From assembly GCF_041886205.1 (NCBI RefSeq), contig NZ_CP169030.1: a stretch of DNA of 64,000 nt. One strand, given 5' to 3'. The stretch is from Escherichia coli. Lineage in GTDB: Bacteria; Pseudomonadota; Gammaproteobacteria; Enterobacterales; Enterobacteriaceae. The notes below the pieces were generated by a model that saw only the letters and a list, made by a program, of their open reading frames with translations, searched no databases and was not told the origin of the DNA. A program made the position numbers and the translations under genes. This document shows, one piece after another, positions 30,822-37,472 of this stretch (the first letter of the stretch is position 1; each line of letters starts with the position of its first letter).

Positions 30822-33004
30822 ATGAAGATACTGAGGCAGCTGTGGAACCAGAAAGGGCTTGATGCGGCAGTTGAAGATGTACCTGAGGATCGATACGGTT
30901 TCGGTAATATCGCAGAAAATATATCCCGTTCCATCCTTACTCTTCCTCTGGAGGCTTCAAATGTTGTCGGAATAGAAGGTGCATGGGGATCGGGTAAAAC
31001 AAGCCTCCTTAATCTGATCCTGAGAAACCTTGCCCTGAAAAAAGATGCTCACACGCATGTGCTGCATATTTCTCCCTGGCTGAGTGGTGGCAGTCCGGTT
31101 GAAGCGCTCTTTCTTCCGGTTGCCACGGTTATCCAGCAGGAAATGGAAATACGCTATCCCCCGAAGGGCTTCAAAAAGCTCTGGCGTAAATATCTGTTGT
31201 CACCGGAAGCTCAAAAAGTGATTGAGTATGCTCAGGATACTTCATCGCGCGTCCTTCCACTGGTTCAATATATCGGACAGTTTTCCAGCATTATTAACTG
31301 GATAGCAGGCGGAATAAAGGTATTTTCAGACAGCCGTCTGGCTGTTGATCAGAAAACCACGACAAAGCTTCGGGCTGAAATTGCAGGACAACTGGTGAGT
31401 CTGGATCTGAAGTTCATTGTTGTCATGGATGATCTGGACCGACTGGAGCCATCCCAGGTGGCGGAAGTGTTCAGGCTTGTGCGTGCAGTAGCCGATCTGC
31501 CCCGCTTTACCCATATTCTCTGTTATGACAGGCAGATTATCACTCATGCCGTTGAACATGCGCTGAATATCGAAGATGGCAGCCGTTATCTCCAGAAAAT
31601 CATTCAGCTTAGTTTTAAATTACCCCGACCTGAAGCCTTTGATTTACGTAATGAATTTCGCCAGCGGGCTGAGGCTCTATATCAGCAAATTAATAATCAA
31701 CCGCCAGACTCTGGAATGGTAAGGGATCTCATCGCGGTGACTGATACCTATGGTGCCGCACTTTCGACGCCACGGGAAATCCATCAGGCCATTAATTCCC
31801 TGATTTGTGCCTGCTTCAGCTTATACGGGTGACAAACCCGGCTCTGTATGACTGGACAGAGCATTACCTGACAGAACGGTCCGTGATTGAAACCGGTCAG
31901 GGTATGCTTTCTGACGGAGAGAAAGCAGACTTCCGGGAGGGGCTTATCAGATGTATGAAGACGTTCAGGGCATCAAATGCAGACTCGTTTCTGACACTTG
32001 CAGACTGGATCCCAGGTATCAGTGGACATAATGATGAATATCTGAATCTTTTTGAGCCCGTCAGTGAGGATTTTCGTCATATCCAGACGACCGGTAAACG
32101 ACTCAGCAGCCTGACGCACTGGCGATATTATTTTGCCTTCTCCTCACCACAGAATGTTCTGCCACCTGAATTCTTCAGACAGCTTTTTGAACAGGCTGGC
32201 GTATCGGAAAAACAGCAGCAGCTTTCTGAATTGCTGCTCTCAAAAATCAACAGTGTGGGCAGTCTGTCCGGAACCTGGTTTGAACATATACTGAGCAGAC
32301 TGACTCCAGGCCTGATAAGAGAACGTAATTTCGAAGAGTGCGCAGGACTGGTTCATTTTTTCTTCGATCACACCGATGAGGTGAGCACTCGCTTCAGTAT
32401 CCGTAACCCATGGTTTTCCCTGCGTGAAATGGCCATTAATGAGGTTGTACGGCATCTGCTGAAGCATATGCAGGATATTGATGAGACCAGAACGATCACG
32501 CTTATGGAAAAACTGATCGTTACGGGTGCTTCGCCGTTCTGGATAGCCGATTTTATGCGGGATCTTATCTGGGAACATGGACTTGCTCAGAATGCAGTAC
32601 CTTCGCCTTCAGACGCTCTTTTCAGTCGCGATATTACGGAACGGTTGCGTGACAGGTTTGCGGAACGTATGAATCAACCAGAACTTCAGCAACAGCTTCT
32701 CCTGCGCAAGTCTCTTCTCGGGTATCTCTACGCCTGGAGAGACATGAGTTCAGGTGAAACCGTGAAGCAATGGGTCAGAGAAGTTACTACCACTGATGAA
32801 GGCCTTGTTAACCTGTTGATACGATTACAGACCAGTGTCTTCAGCTCCCACCGAGGGGCATATCGCCGGATTGCGCGTGACCAGGTCAGTCCGTTCTTTG
32901 ATGACTGGCCAGCAGTCGAAGAGAAGTTGAAGGTTATGCTGTCCGGCAACGAGCTGACTCCGGAGCAGGAAGCGCTCAAAACAGCGCTGGAAAATGACGA
33001 CTGA
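30822..33004 (+). pseudogene. KAP-family P-loop NTPase, split by a frameshift near 31805-31832 (about 730 aa if repaired)
   Basis: Walker A GAWGSGKTS, Walker B FIVVMDDLDR and PREIHQAINSL motif in ORF 30822-31832; continuation in the next frame at 31805-33004; IS21 ends 10 bp upstream of the ATG. Confidence 0.6.
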
Positions 33005-33053: not shown

Positions 33054-33953
33054 TCAGGCGCTTAATGCTTTATCCTTGTCAAAAGGAACACCGGCATACG
33101 CAAGCTCACTCAGCAGTTTGCGTTTCCATCCACCATGCTCATCAAGCTCGGTATAGAGAACCCCGGCAAGATCTGAAGGGATTTCGATATCTCCCTTCCT
33201 GAGTACAAGTACTTTCCCGCGTCCAAGCTTCCCGGCGAAATATCCGAGCTCATACAGGACATTCTGGCGTGCGCGGAGACGTGTGCTTTCAGATGCCAGA
33301 GCACTGCCGCTATCGTCGGGCGTCATCAGCACGATGGCAAAACTGACATCCCCTGACTCTGCTTCAAATTTCTCGATAATCGTCCTGGAGCCGTCAGGAC
33401 GTTCTGAAAGAATGATTTCCTCAAGACCTATCCGGGATATAAAACGGGCAACAGACTGAAGGGCATCATTATCATGGCCATGAACAATAAAAATTTTTCG
33501 GGAAACCGGCCGAAACACTGCAGGCTCAGGATCGTGTTGGTTTTCCACATACAACTGGTAATCGCGCACGAACGGGGCAACTAATGACGACGTGAATTTT
33601 CGAATGGATTCAATAATGTTTCGATCATAGAAAAATGTATGACAGAAATTAAAGGAAAAATTGTTATCGTCTGCCATTTTCTCGATCAGCAGCAACTTCA
33701 GGCCCAAAATATCAGCGGGCTCATCAGGCCACTGTAGAACAGCGGAACCAGCCATGCTGGATTCAGTATCTTCACTCCTGGCCAGAAAGGTATCAAGTTC
33801 AACATTGCGGGTCAGATGTGCATTAACTGACTGCAGATTCTCTGAGTTCAAGAGCCGGGCCAATTGCTTAAGAGGTTGCTGATAGTTCTGAACGTCAGCG
33901 CGCTGAAGGTCGAATACGCAATTTTTAAGTGACTGAAAGATATCAATTGCCAT
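33054..33953 (-). CDS. protein with C-terminal TIR-like (COG4271-type) domain and unknown N-terminal domain
   Basis: 299 aa; C-terminal KIFIVHGHD ... AIVLMTPDD ... RARQNVLYELGYFAGKLGRGKVLVL matches recalled hallmarks of the TIR-like domain found in CBASS/Pycsar-type effectors. Confidence 0.5.
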   Translation of the reverse strand: MAIDIFQSLKNCVFDLQRADVQNYQQPLKQLARLLNSENLQSVNAHLTRNVELDTFLARSEDTESSMAGSAVLQWPDEPADILGLKLLLIEKMADDNNFSFNFCHTFFYDRNIIESIRKFTSSLVAPFVRDYQLYVENQHDPEPAVFRPVSRKIFIVHGHDNDALQSVARFISRIGLEEIILSERPDGSRTIIEKFEAESGDVSFAIVLMTPDDSGSALASESTRLRARQNVLYELGYFAGKLGRGKVLVLRKGDIEIPSDLAGVLYTELDEHGGWKRKLLSELAYAGVPFDKDKALSA

Positions 33954-34233
33954 CCTGCCCGCTCTCCTGTCTTTGTTGTTCTGCTCTGTCCAGAATCTGT
34001 TGGCGCAGATTTTCTTTCATGTGTTCGATTAATGGGCTGACCATCGGATTAGTGGCATAACCAGAAGCGCGTTCGTACACCATGGAATAGGCTTCCTGAA
34101 TCGCGTTCTCAATGCTGACAGGATCGTTAGCATCGAAGTGGACATCATAACTTCCGTTTAATGCCTCTGTTGCTCTCTCAACCTCTTTTAGCTGTTTCTG
34201 CATTTTGTCTAAACCTGTGATTTTGACGCTCAT
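33943..34233 (-). CDS. small hypothetical protein (96 aa), translationally coupled to the TIR-like gene
   Basis: Stop overlaps downstream start by 11 nt; helical, charged; no recognisable domain. Confidence 0.4.
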   Translation of the reverse strand: MSVKITGLDKMQKQLKEVERATEALNGSYDVHFDANDPVSIENAIQEAYSMVYERASGYATNPMVSPLIEHMKENLRQQILDRAEQQRQESGQDGN

Positions 34234-34380
34234 AACAACCTCCGGACTAAGTGAGATGTATCAACCTTTATAGATAGCACGTTGGAGATGTGGGGTAAGG
34301 GATATCACTCAAATTCCATGTAATTTCATTAAGATCAGACTTAACCTTTTTTCGGATCTCAGATAAAAAAGAAAGAAATA

Positions 34381-34511
34381 GAGATATGCTAAACATATGC
34401 CTGGCATCTACATATGCTACCGCTATACATATGCCACACATCTGCCTATACTAAACATATGCACACACCCGGTGCTTTGAATATTCCGGATATGTTTCAC
34501 ATATCCATATG
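34381..34511 (+). promoter_or_regulatory. array of five or more direct ACATATGC-type repeats upstream of vapB (putative operator)
   Basis: ACATATGC at 34392, 34409, 34426, 34454 plus variants AGATATGC (34381) and CCATATGC (34504); read directly. Confidence 0.4.
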
Positions 34512-34528
34512 CTCGGGAGAGAAAAAAC

Positions 34529-34759
34529 ATGAGAACCGTATCGATATTTAAAAATGGCAACAACCGCGCCATCCGTCTGCCTCGTGATCTGGATTTTGAG
34601 GGGGTGAGCGAGCTCGAGATCGTCCGGGAAGGGGACAGCATCATCCTGCGCCCCGTCCGGCCAACCTGGGGATCATTCCTAGAGTACGAAAAAGCCGATC
34701 CAGATTTTATGGCGGAGCGCGAGGATGTTGTCAGCGACGAAGGGCGATTTAACCTGTGA
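34529..34759 (+). CDS. vapB: VapB-type antitoxin (AbrB/SpoVT fold)
   Basis: 76 aa; overlaps vapC start by 4 nt; resembles VagC/VapB of enterobacterial plasmids by recall. Confidence 0.8.
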   Translation: MRTVSIFKNGNNRAIRLPRDLDFEGVSELEIVREGDSIILRPVRPTWGSFLEYEKADPDFMAEREDVVSDEGRFNL

Positions 34760-35172
34760 ACAAGACTTATATGCTTGATACCTGTATCTGCTCGTTCATC
34801 ATGCGTGAACAGCCAGAAGCCGTCCTGAAGCGTCTGGAGCAGGCGGTGCTACGCGGCCACCGTATAGTGGTCTCGGCCATCACCTACTCTGAAATGCGCT
34901 TCGGGGCTACCGGCCCAAAGGCCTCACCACGTCACGTCCAACTGGTCGATGAATTCTGCGCCCGCCTCGATGCCATCCTGCCCTGGGATCGCGCCGCAGT
35001 AGACGCCACCACGAAGATTAAAGTGGCACTGCGGCTGGCCGGGACGCCGATCGGCCCGAACGACACGGCGATTGCCGGGCACGCCATCGCCGCCGGGGCG
35101 ATACTGGTAACGAATAATACAAGAGAATTTGAGCGAGTGCCTGACCTGGTGCTGGAAGACTGGGTGAAGTAA
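34756..35172 (+). CDS. vapC: VapC PIN-domain toxin
   Basis: 138 aa; N-terminal MLDTCI with acidic Asp typical of PIN domains. Confidence 0.8.
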   Translation: MNKTYMLDTCICSFIMREQPEAVLKRLEQAVLRGHRIVVSAITYSEMRFGATGPKASPRHVQLVDEFCARLDAILPWDRAAVDATTKIKVALRLAGTPIGPNDTAIAGHAIAAGAILVTNNTREFERVPDLVLEDWVK

Positions 35173-35210
35173 GACACTCTTTTCAAAGTCAGGAGATAAG
35201 GGCACCAAGA

Positions 35211-35235
35211 AACAGCCCGTATACGGGCTGTTTTA
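35211..35235. terminator. terminator hairpin after vapC (CAGCCCGTATACGGGCTG then TTTT)
   Basis: Read directly. Confidence 0.55.
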
Positions 35236-35333
35236 ACAGATATCTACAGTAAGCGGTCCTAAACTGTAGGGTATCTTCGAAGATCAGACTATCAGGGAGC
35301 TAAAGCCTATCTTCCGGCGGCAAAAACAGTGGC

Positions 35334-37472
35334 TCAAGCGATACGGGCAACCGAGCTCTGGTTTGCTGCCGGTGGCAGGGCGATGAGCTTGTCACATTCC
35401 ATAATCACGTACTCCGGGATGAGATCGAATCTGGACGGATCTAGTTGACAGATGAACTCATTTTCAATGTGGTACGTTTCGTTAACGAATTTTCGTATTA
35501 CCGGATGGTCCTGATCCAGTTCCAGTAAACGGAATACCTGCAGTTTTTCATAGCCGTTACGACAGCGACGGTACAGGTTTTTTATTTCATCTGGGCTGCT
35601 GACGAGAGCCTGAAGTCGCGGGTAATCAAAACTGTCCACATACTCCCGGATATCCCGCAAGGCCTGCTGAATTTTCTCAGGAGCCATTTTGGGATAGCCC
35701 GAGCCCGCAGCGGCAGGCTCGCGATAATCCAGCGGGACGACGCGTCGATGGAATAGATTGGATAGAAGCTGATAAGCATCACCACGTTCGTCAACGATTT
35801 CAAAGTAGCGACGAAGATAGATGAGCTTAATGATCTCCTCACAGTCTGCTGACGCGGTGATGGATTTGCAGATCTGCATGAATGTCATGATATCGCCGTC
35901 GTTAACAGGTAATTCTTCTATGACTCCAGCAGACAGGCGCAGGCAGGAGGCGGTCACCTGATTACTGAACAACCTTCTGACTGACTTCAGCGTGTCAATC
36001 ACAGGCTCCACGTCATGCGTCAGCATAAGTACAGTCCGGTTCTTCAGGCATTCACCACTTGCACGTCTGAACAGCATTTCAAGAATGGCAAACTTCTTGT
36101 TTTTATCAAAAGAAGATATGGGATCATCAAGGATAATCAGTCCCGGGTTTTTTGACAGGCATTCATACATGAATAACACAATCGCAAAGGCGTTCCGTTC
36201 TCCATAGCTGAGATGCTGGCTACCGCCGCTGACGTACCCGTCAAAATCTATGTGTCGTAGCCTGAGTTTTCTCTGCTCTCCCTCGCCGGCTATATCCACC
36301 CTGTATTTATAGCCTGCATAAGTGAGGAAATTATTGATGTTTGTTTTGTGCTGTGCGATCAGCCGGATCATGCTGTCCCGGTGCCGGTTAATTTTTCCCT
36401 GCAGCGGTCCGGCAAGGTTTATCAGGTCCATAAGGGCCGCGTTCAGTCTGTCGGTGATCCCCTGCATGAGTTCGGATTGCAGATCAGGGAAGAACTGCAG
36501 GTCAATCAACCTGGCAGTGAGCACCTCCCGAACGTTCTGCTGTTCCTGCAGGCTGAAAACATTCAGGCCTCTCAGCGCAGTGAGTTTCTCTGTCAGCGTA
36601 TCGGTCTGGCGTTTCAACGCCACTAGGTACTCGATATGTTCGGCTTCCGGACCGTTCTGAAGCATAGTAATGGCCAGAAGGCGTTCTCTGGCGCTCTCCG
36701 TCAGGTAATTACCGAGGTTTTCCACCAGTCTGATGATAGCGGTCAGGTTTTTAATGGTGGATTTATCGTATTCCTCTCTGACTTGGCGAATTTGTGCTTC
36801 CTTTCCCGTGATATCACCGGTACAGAACGGACAGCAGCCATCCGAAAGGGGCGAAAACTCGAGTCCCTTTGTCTGCCAGTCAATCCATTCCACGCGGCGT
36901 TCACTGCGGATGTAGGGTTGATAGTTCTCAAGACCAGCCGGAATGTGGTGTATTTTATTTCCGCCTGACAGACCTCTCATGCCGGTTGAAGAACGTGAAA
37001 TCCCGGAACTGGTTGATCTGAAAGCATTACTGAGTTCCTGTAGATGGTCTATCAGAGAGTTCAGCTCAGTGTGATCCGTGAAAACAGCCCGGATCTTTTG
37101 CGTCATTTCTTCTATTTCACGCTCTCTTTCCGCATGGGCTTGATTGCGGATAAGAATATTAAAGCTATCACTGATGAGCTCGTCCGGTTGGAACGTAAAC
37201 TGACTGACGTACTCCTCGTTGAAGCACATCACGTCCCCAATCCCGTCAGCACCGATGACAATGGGCCCGGTGCTATCGGGGTTTTCTCCGCGCAGCCGGA
37301 AGGGTATCAGTGCCTGTAGTCCCTGAATGTCGTCCCGCGCCGCACAGCTTATGGCCCGTGACAGCGTACTTTTTCCAGTACCATTTGGCGCAAACTTAAT
37401 GTTCAGTTTATCGGCAGTGAGGGTGATATGTGCTCGTACGATGTTATTGCAGTGGCGTATTTCAATGTCCAT
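35334..37472 (-). CDS. RloC/Rad50-like ABC ATPase with CxxC motif in the inter-lobe insert and an uncharacterised C-terminal domain
   Basis: 712 aa; Walker A APNGTGKST near N-terminus; CCPFCTG about residue 213; signature-like LSYGERN, Walker B LIILDDPISSFD and H-loop LTHD about residues 415-480; roughly 230 aa beyond the ATPase. Confidence 0.55.
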   Translation of the reverse strand: MDIEIRHCNNIVRAHITLTADKLNIKFAPNGTGKSTLSRAISCAARDDIQGLQALIPFRLRGENPDSTGPIVIGADGIGDVMCFNEEYVSQFTFQPDELISDSFNILIRNQAHAEREREIEEMTQKIRAVFTDHTELNSLIDHLQELSNAFRSTSSGISRSSTGMRGLSGGNKIHHIPAGLENYQPYIRSERRVEWIDWQTKGLEFSPLSDGCCPFCTGDITGKEAQIRQVREEYDKSTIKNLTAIIRLVENLGNYLTESARERLLAITMLQNGPEAEHIEYLVALKRQTDTLTEKLTALRGLNVFSLQEQQNVREVLTARLIDLQFFPDLQSELMQGITDRLNAALMDLINLAGPLQGKINRHRDSMIRLIAQHKTNINNFLTYAGYKYRVDIAGEGEQRKLRLRHIDFDGYVSGGSQHLSYGERNAFAIVLFMYECLSKNPGLIILDDPISSFDKNKKFAILEMLFRRASGECLKNRTVLMLTHDVEPVIDTLKSVRRLFSNQVTASCLRLSAGVIEELPVNDGDIMTFMQICKSITASADCEEIIKLIYLRRYFEIVDERGDAYQLLSNLFHRRVVPLDYREPAAAGSGYPKMAPEKIQQALRDIREYVDSFDYPRLQALVSSPDEIKNLYRRCRNGYEKLQVFRLLELDQDHPVIRKFVNETYHIENEFICQLDPSRFDLIPEYVIMECDKLIALPPAANQSSVARIA

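Follow-up and report, generated by a model that had tools for sequence, protein, structure and literature searches.

The vapBC toxin-antitoxin operon considered here lies on contig NZ_CP169030.1 of Escherichia coli assembly GCF_041886205.1, of which one stretch of 64,000 nucleotides (the window) was analyzed, and is directly preceded by an array of short CATATG-type repeats that forms the main subject of this report. The first gene encodes a vagC-type antitoxin, VapB, whose PDB matches include the VapB chains of the DNA-bound complexes 3zvk and 5l6l, and the second encodes a vagD-type PIN-domain toxin, VapC; the vapC start and the vapB stop overlap by 4 nt, and the coordinates of these and the other features are collected in Table 1. 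The pair is named vapB/vapC or vagC/vapC in public records, and DNA matches to vagCD-type vapBC were found in 4,889 plasmid records of PLSDB, mostly from Klebsiella, Escherichia, Salmonella, and Enterobacter. Known in the literature under the family name vagCD, these modules are among the commonest toxin-antitoxin systems on the IncF, IncH, and IncR resistance plasmids found in E. coli and Klebsiella (PMC7326226). The vapBC2 locus of pSLT was considered as a family member and set aside, as the literature shows it to be of the mvpAT type rather than of the vagCD family. The gene upstream of the array (33943-34233) runs along the minus strand, divergently from vapB; the repeats therefore cannot belong to its terminator, an explanation that the initial annotation had allowed for.

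The initial annotation had described at least five copies or variants of an 8-bp motif with a CATATG core, spaced over 130 bp before vapB. The count was borne out, with four exact copies of ACATATGC plus variants at 34383-34511: the exact copies, all on the plus strand, start at 34393, 34410, 34427, and 34455 and fall within 70 bp, and the variants AGATATGC, ACATCTGC, and CCATATGC start at 34382, 34438, and 34505, respectively. Only two more copies of ACATATGC occur in the window. The core CATATG occurs 19 times in the window, five of them inside 34394-34511, and nine hexamers with at most one mismatch to it were counted in 34383-34511 versus ∼0.65 expected per 130 bp (Poisson P ∼3e-8), which makes this the densest CATATG-like cluster of the window (elsewhere at most six such hexamers per 130 bp). 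The description of the repeat as a strictly directional 8-mer with loose spacing did not stand, since the hexamers lie on a regular 11/6-bp lattice; the conserved unit is the palindromic hexamer CATATG, in the form R-CATATG-Y (G/A at -1 and C/T at +6 in the family logo), with the variants CATCTG, CATATC, and GATATG. Lattice positions start at 34383, 34394, 34405, 34411, 34422, 34428, 34439, 34445, and 34456 in a left block and, after a 33-bp gap, at 34489, 34500, and 34506 in a right block, giving successive steps of 11, 11, 6, 11, 6, 11, 6, 11, 33, 11, and 6 bp. The underlying rule is that two hexamers 11 bp apart form a 17-bp site and that the next site abuts it, which yields the 11/6 alternation and a 17-bp period; this spacing pattern was seen in none of the other CATATG-like clusters of the window. 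The twelve lattice positions span the predicted promoter, its upstream region, and the 5′ untranslated region (UTR), and the array ends 17 bp short of the vapB ATG.

Table 1. Features of the vapBC control region and its borders, in order along the window.
Feature	Coordinates	Strand	Sequence or description	Remark
Conserved left edge of cassette	34341-34382	+	T-run, TTCGGATC (34351-34358), A/G-rich cagataaaaaagaaagaaatagag before first hexamer	
Site 1 (putative)	34383-34399	+	GATATG-ctaaa-CATATG, pair 11 bp apart	Equivalent to first pair of relatives, GATATG-N5-CATATC
Site 2 (putative)	34394-34410	+	CATATG-cctgg-CATCTA	One mismatch to CATATGCCNNNCATCTG
Site 3 (putative)	34411-34427	+	CATATG-ctacc-GCTATA	Degenerate second hexamer runs into -35 box
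Predicted sigma-70 promoter	34424-34452	+	-35 TATACA (34424-34429), 17-bp spacer, -10 TATACT (34447-34452)	Consensus scan, 9/12
Site 4 (putative)	34428-34444	+	CATATG-ccaca-CATCTG	Exact match to family 17-mer (CATATGCC-N3-CATCTG)
Site 5, core operator (putative)	34445-34461	+	CCTATA-ctaaa-CATATG	Only pair kept in distant relatives
Site 6, 5′ UTR (putative)	34488-34511	+	GGATATGT-ttc-ACATATCC (hexamers 34489, 34500) and abutting CATATG (34506)	Perfect inverted repeat at 34488-34506, 8-nt arms, 100% complementary (repeat finder)
Shine-Dalgarno sequence of vapB	34515-34521	+	GGGAGAG	7 nt before ATG at 34529; read from sequence
vapB	34529-34759	+	vagC-type antitoxin, 76 aa, AbrB/MazE fold	PF04014, E = 3e-9
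vapC	34756-35172	+	vagD-type PIN-domain toxin, 138 aa	PF01850, E = 3e-15
Terminator-like hairpin	35211-35234		AACAGCCCG-tata-CGGGCTGTT, then TT	Between convergent vapC and minus-strand ATPase gene; read from sequence

Overlap with the toxin-antitoxin promoter, one mark of an autoregulatory operator, was found for sites 4 and 5, which cover the predicted promoter (34424-34452): site 4 overlies the -35 box and spacer, and site 5 overlies the -10 box and the predicted transcription start, near 34459-34461. Sites 1-3 lie upstream of the predicted promoter, and site 6 lies in the 5′ UTR. Among enterobacterial relatives, the boxes are kept as CTATACA and TATACT.

Upstream regions were compared among 14 plasmid relatives and the loci of a one-genome-per-species contig scan (76 loci, 64 usable upstream regions), which supplied the diversity, the initial listing of homologous proteins having comprised only sequences of at least 86% identity. 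MAFFT misaligned the array of the window at a 34-bp indel, and its register was set by hand and by lattice positions. Adjacent hexamers were spaced by 6, 11, or 17 bp in 75% of cases over 78 distinct vapB upstream regions, versus 3% in shuffles, and pairwise distances of up to 60 bp, summed over 11 loci, were nearly all 6, 11, 17, 23, 28, 34, 40, 45, 51, or 57 bp. Hexamer variants across the relatives were CATCTG, CATATC, CATAGG, CATACG, and GATATG, and the full-length consensus reads GATATG-N5-CATATC CATATG-CC-N3-CATCTG CATAGG-N5-CATACG CATATG-N5-CATCTG CATATG, with the -35 box abutting the last site. Indels of 6, 17, and 34 bp separate the arrays of relatives, and by this comparison the window appears to carry a shortened version of the array: one 6-bp hexamer that is kept by its closest relative (locus L016) is absent, for which reason sites 1 and 2 have hexamer 34394 in common, and a 34-bp block of two 17-bp sites, kept in L002, L036, and others, is absent directly before the hexamer of site 3. 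Site 6 is present in the group of L002, L003, L016, L024, and L036.

Copy number ranged from 0-3 hexamers in distant homologs up to 19 in L045, and array length followed identity to the VapB of the window (rho = 0.80); an effect of plasmid versus chromosomal location was weak (P = 0.05 overall, 0.19 in close relatives) and confounded with lineage. Flanking genes differed in every locus examined (nitroreductase, ccdAB, TrlF ATPase, DUF3800, nuclease, and others), and beta- and other gamma-proteobacteria, as well as large chromosomal contigs, also had the array with vapB. The array thus moves with vapBC into unrelated contexts. Distant homologs (64-76% identity), from Shewanella, Oceanospirillaceae, Spongiibacter, Azoarcus, and betaproteobacterial metagenome-assembled genomes (MAGs), keep a single CATATG pair, spaced by 11-12 bp, over -10/+1 where site 5 lies, and in the betaproteobacterial loci this pair is preceded by a clear TTGACA-17-TATGCT promoter. 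Because only that pair is kept at this distance, the site 5 pair represents the ancestral core, and the rest of the array an expansion in an enterobacterial, largely plasmid-borne lineage. When 29 distinct arrays were anchored solely on the first 12-mer, information content was 1.63 bits in the downstream hexamer columns and 0.54 bits in the spacer columns (P = 7e-9); since the hexamer columns are conserved while the spacer columns drift, the distal sites are under selection.

Several arrays had features of their own. The largest seen, that of L045 (on a contig of Enterobacteriaceae MGYG-HGUT-00110), holds its 19 hexamers on an unbroken lattice ∼30-215 bp upstream of vapB and includes at least three copies of the 34-bp unit CATCTGCATATG-ccatg-CAGATGCATAyC-ctgag, in which CATCTG alternates with its reverse complement, CAGATG. 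On a scaffold of Pantoea sp. BAV 3049, locus L091 (992598-994163) has a full hexamer array followed, at the end of the locus sequence, by a match limited to VapB residues 1-22, and the same scaffold carries another copy, a complete one (L053), at a different place; L091 may be a remnant cassette. Between the predicted start and the Shine-Dalgarno sequence, short palindromes were specific to sub-lineages, namely GGCCGGTCGGCC in L004, L005, and L029, GGGAATACTCCC in L006, L007, and L021-L023, and ATCATGCATGAT in L008-L010 and L051, and in this stretch of the 5′ UTR (34470-34506 in the window) an extra CATATG-type site was restricted to the group of the window. These palindromes could be mRNA 5′ hairpins or alternative protein sites.

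The identity of the binder was addressed by the sequences of antitoxin and site together. A sister VapB clade (51% identity), with alpha-, beta-, and gamma-proteobacterial hosts (Thauera, Mycetohabitans, Paraburkholderia, Burkholderia, Rhizobium, Sinorhizobium, and a gammaproteobacterial MAG), has the hairpin F[KR]NGNSQA[VI]RIPA, versus FKNGNNRAIRLPR in the VapB of the window. All eight sister-clade loci have GTACA pairs, located between -19 and -38 relative to the ATG and spaced by 11, 11, 11, 11, 11, 10, 12, and 15 bp, and none of the eight had a CATATG pair. The site sequence therefore covaries with the DNA-binding region of the antitoxin, as would be expected of an operator read by VapB, and because the motif turns to GTACA exactly where the VapB hairpin changes, the binder is probably VapB and not a third party. 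Two Photorhabdus homologs, L081 and L082, were not used for covariation because they looked degenerate (an internal deletion in the VapB of L082, and a match beginning only at residue 7 in L081).

Homology to solved complexes points in the same direction. The VapB of the window aligns without gaps over residues 3-22 with Rickettsia felis VapB2 (3zvk), with N9, R16, and P18 kept. In the R. felis complex each dimer reads a 10-bp internal palindrome, A-R-TATATA-Y-T, Asn9 touching the central pairs and Gln11 the R/Y positions, and the two VapB dimers of the octamer lie in adjacent major grooves (PMC3326315); the arrangement in the Caulobacter VapBC1-DNA complex (5l6l) is the same (PMC5389673). The sites described here fit a two-fold symmetric dimer likewise, CATATG being a perfect palindrome and the family logo paralleling A-R-TATATA-Y-T, and from the fit of R-CATATG-Y to the 10-bp palindrome read by the VapB2 dimer we infer that ACATATGC corresponds to one full putative VapB-dimer site.

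The array is accordingly best read as the autoregulatory operator of a vagCD-type vapBC, built as a head-to-tail row of 17-bp putative VapB/VapBC sites, and we put the probability of this reading, drawn from sequence comparison and homology, at roughly 0.78. By homology to the solved VapBC-DNA complexes, one two-fold symmetric dimer of the AbrB-type VapB would bind each R-CATATG-Y element, and one VapB4-VapC4 hetero-octamer would occupy each 17-bp site, with its two VapB dimers on the two hexamers in adjacent major grooves; occupied sites 4 and 5 would then exclude RNA polymerase. More tentatively, the flanking sites may increase occupancy locally, for tighter repression with a more switch-like response, whether by cooperative side-by-side binding around the helix or by looping between the upstream sites and the UTR site, and VapC would probably act as co-repressor, with excess VapC releasing the complex, as in Salmonella vapBC. 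As 17 bp is ∼1.6 turns, neighboring complexes would face different sides of the DNA; if binding were to unwind the DNA to ∼11.3 bp per turn, neighbors would alternate on opposite faces and 34 bp would make three turns, in keeping with a super-repeat of strong and weak sites every 34 bp. Changes in array length come in steps of 6, 17, and 34 bp and would arise by recombination or slippage among the repeats.

Several points weigh against this reading. Half-sites in known VapBC-DNA structures lie ∼14 bp apart (PMC3326315) versus 11 bp here, and this spacing of one helical turn (11-12 bp) is conserved from enterics to betaproteobacteria. With a 10-bp footprint per dimer, hexamers 6 bp apart overlap, which makes simultaneous filling of all sites questionable. 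The residues that contact bases in R. felis, 9 and 11, are identical in the CATATG and GTACA clades, so that the change in specificity would have to come from other positions (12, 13, 17, 19) or from DNA shape. One enterobacterial group, L006-L010, has no hexamer in the -35/-10 spacer, and many relatives function with two to five hexamers, which puts the need for extra copies in question. Finally, the searchable literature yielded no binding, footprint, transcription-start, or reporter data for this vapBC family, and VapB binding and the promoter are thus inferred here.

A more ambitious version of VapB binding, in which the array was amplified in the enterobacterial plasmid lineage as a platform for a continuous VapB-VapC nucleoprotein filament (on up to at least 19 sites) that would do more than repress, serving as a sink that sets a VapC:VapB threshold, as a roadblock to read-through, or as a determinant of plasmid pairing and competition, is doubtful, although it keeps some chance. 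It is distinctly unlikely, in our view, that only the promoter-proximal pair or pairs function, the copies upstream and in the UTR having arisen as neutral by-products when repeats slipped or recombined unequally. The variability of copy number, its dependence on lineage, the 6-, 17-, and 34-bp differences between close relatives, and the fact that distant homologs manage with one pair would all suit such neutrality; yet neutral duplicates would decay uniformly, whereas the distal hexamer columns are kept while the spacers diverge, and the lattice phase is held across the whole array. Neutral repeat expansion is possible for some of the copies.

The remaining explanations dispense with VapB altogether. 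Binding of the hexamers by another regulator, either a host global or a plasmid-encoded one, has a precedent in Fis at Haemophilus influenzae vapBC-1 (PMC4803016) and nothing direct in its favor; it is very unlikely, given that the pair follows vapB across Enterobacterales, Shewanella, Oceanospirillaceae, and betaproteobacteria, on many plasmid types and on chromosomal contigs, that it switches to GTACA exactly with the VapB hairpin, and that the family 17-mer has no second exact or one-mismatch copy in the 64-kb window. The motif does not fit the DnaA, PhoB, ArcA, or TorR boxes (compared by eye), and a one-mismatch DnaA-like 9-mer in the UTR of the window was rejected, as it is not conserved in L002. 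The reading as cooperative VapB binding offered by the initial annotation has thus gained comparative and structural-by-homology support, whereas its other proposal, an iteron-like site unrelated to vapBC, has not. Tandem short direct repeats on a plasmid do recall an iteron or a centromere-like site for replication or partition, and promoter-overlapping repeat arrays are likewise seen in partition centromeres and at the omega sites of pSM19035 (PMC4803016). The array, however, adjoins vapB and never a replicon gene in other loci, no rep or par gene was adjacent to it in any locus, its neighbors in the window are of the defence type (PifA, a TIR protein, and a PDC-S06 ATPase), and no partition genes flanked it in the window or in the loci compared, so that the likeness to a centromere upstream of a parA- or parM-type operon is architectural only. 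Large chromosomal contigs also carry the array together with vapB, the window has no second copy of it, and its 17-bp period is unlike the phasing of iterons, which is typically ∼22 bp. Such an origin is extremely improbable. The chance that the repeats are a small protein-coding gene or a structured RNA is close to negligible: the array is indeed traversed by open reading frames (plus strand, 34414-34551; minus strand, 34268-34441 and 34423-34644), and a hypothetical protein is annotated there in some public records, but relatives differ by indels of 17 and 34 bp, lengths not divisible by three, conservation tracks the hexamer lattice and not codons, an Rfam search of 34000-35400 at E values up to 1 returned no match, and the inverted repeat of the 5′ UTR can form a hairpin but folds no better than shuffles (z = -0.43).

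An opposite-strand coding sequence for a "hypothetical protein" is annotated across the array and the vapB start in L004 (1083-1544, minus strand) and in many Klebsiella records; because of the 17- and 34-bp indels and the lattice-type conservation, it is probably a spurious gene call. The cassette that carries the array has its left edge at 34341-34343 (query 142-144), because plasmid matches that do not include the upstream gene of the window begin there, and the columns 34341-34382 are conserved in the alignment of relatives. In 35 of 79 loci, the motif T[TC]CGGATC precedes the first hexamer by ∼30 bp, and the left-edge element was noted ∼180-250 bp upstream of vapB in L004, L005, L007, L008, L014, L017, L029, L036, L045, and L053. 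An inverted copy, AGATCCGG, often precedes it, giving AGATCCGG-N12-14-(T-run)CGGATCT, which could fold into a hairpin and contains two GATC Dam sites, and in many loci ACACCGCTACATCTTGTGTT...GGGCCGCTGCGCGCCGG lies further upstream; the window (34341-34359) has the right half of this hairpin element alone. Its role may be that of a cassette boundary, recombination site, insulator, or Dam-sensitive element.

At the other end of the operon, the hairpin at 35211-35234 is likely a bidirectional terminator, which the consensus scan did not list because its T-run is short, and a 45-bp segment containing it (35206-35250) matches on its own in another plasmid (H40). The C-terminus of VapB (34709-34756, residues ∼61-76) reads AEREDVVSDEGRF and contains a pseudo-palindromic R-E-D...D-E-G-R motif; motifs of this kind reportedly enable a single VapB tail to reach two VapC active sites (PMC5389673), and the motif may bear on cross-linking of complexes along the array. 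Upstream, two overlapping plus-strand open reading frames in different frames (30822-31832 and 31805-33004) match positions 2-314 and 329-718 of the PADLOC PifA model, and their counterpart on the plasmid NZ_CP083264.1 is a single gene for a 741-aa P-loop NTPase; the PifA copy of the window looks frameshifted. Next, at 33054-34233 on the minus strand, a CAP12/Pycsar-like TIR-domain protein (PF10137, PADLOC PDC-S35) is encoded, its start overlapping the stop of a 96-aa open reading frame for which no family match was found, and downstream of vapBC a 712-aa AAA_13 ATPase (35334-37472, minus strand) matches PADLOC PDC-S06 at 948 bits. With PifA, the TIR-domain protein, and the PDC-S06 ATPase around vapBC, the region looks like a plasmid-borne defence island.

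Autoregulation of a toxin-antitoxin operon is ordinary in principle; the form that it would take here is unusual, and the module is clinically widespread. Current models of VapBC regulation by conditional cooperativity rest on one or two operators, and the natural copy numbers, from two to at least 19, offer an allelic series in which operator number can be set against repression strength, switch sharpness, and plasmid stabilization. The CATATG and GTACA clades, as a pair, would make a simple system for how AbrB-type antitoxins choose their DNA sites. Should the filament form, array length would be a rapidly evolving tuning knob of plasmid addiction, and a roadblock role would insulate the mobile cassette from read-through transcription; should the extra sites have no effect, what is left would be a conventional operator whose repeats are unstable.

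More than two repressor sites over ∼100 bp of promoter are also found in the ccdAB and hipBA operators and in MraZ arrays, and MraZ, a member of the AbrB superfamily, binds a series of phased direct repeats; these systems differ in fold or family, motif, and spacing, and provide analogies of mechanism only. Closer in kind are Salmonella enterica vapO1/vapO2 and Shigella mvpAT, which likewise pair an AbrB-type VapB with a PIN-domain VapC and have sites over the -10 and -35 boxes, each consisting of two short arms about one helical turn apart. In Salmonella LT2, footprints cover two inverted-repeat operators over -10 and -35, each taken by one octamer, and VapC is a co-repressor that in excess releases the complex (PMC3378870). 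A plasmid VapB homolog 95% identical to that of Salmonella has GTATATCC...CATATAC around its -35 box and GGATATAC-gcttt-GTATATCC after its -10 box; GGATATAC-N5-GTATATCC has the same form as GGATATGT-N3-ACATATCC at site 6 of the window. The Salmonella type differs in having two separate operators, rather than six abutting or overlapping putative sites on a 17-bp lattice, an arm spacing of 13 bp and a core of ATATAC, rather than 11 bp and CATATG, and a VapB of low identity (the VapB of the window scores 38.7 bits to 6ifm). R. felis VapBC2 (3zvk, 27-bp operator; PMC3326315) and Caulobacter VapBC1 (5l6l; PMC5389673) have an aligned hairpin and a ∼10-bp palindromic site with an ATAT center and R/Y at the penultimate positions, which the logo R-CATATG-Y fits; their operators consist of a single half-site pair, and no tandem array has been described for them. 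The "alternating palindrome" of mazEF (PMC4803016) resembles the array in its AbrB/MazE-fold antitoxin and overlapping alternative registers, but it is a single short three-arm element and not a long phased array.

The premise of the initial annotation that type II antitoxin operators usually comprise one or two inverted repeats holds for Salmonella (PMC3378870), and the array is unusual against it, although not unprecedented, given the omega heptads of pSM19035 (PMC4803016). No description of the vagCD control region was found in the literature, where an earlier mention is possible in the original 1992 vagCD paper or in a 2017 functional study; a phased, copy-number-variable tandem array of putative VapB sites appears to be new, whereas repeat arrays that regulate toxin-antitoxin operons were already known. 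The omega heptad arrays, which belong to the regulator of epsilon-zeta, have one dimer per short repeat in a contiguous array over promoters and are plasmid-borne and toxin-antitoxin-linked, and cooperative polymerization along the array has been proposed for them (PMC4803016). Omega, however, is a ribbon-helix-helix protein separate from the antitoxin, reads 7-bp heptads without spacers, and also serves as a partition centromere protein, whereas the presumed binder of the array described here is the antitoxin itself, on hexamers that alternate at 11 and 6 bp.

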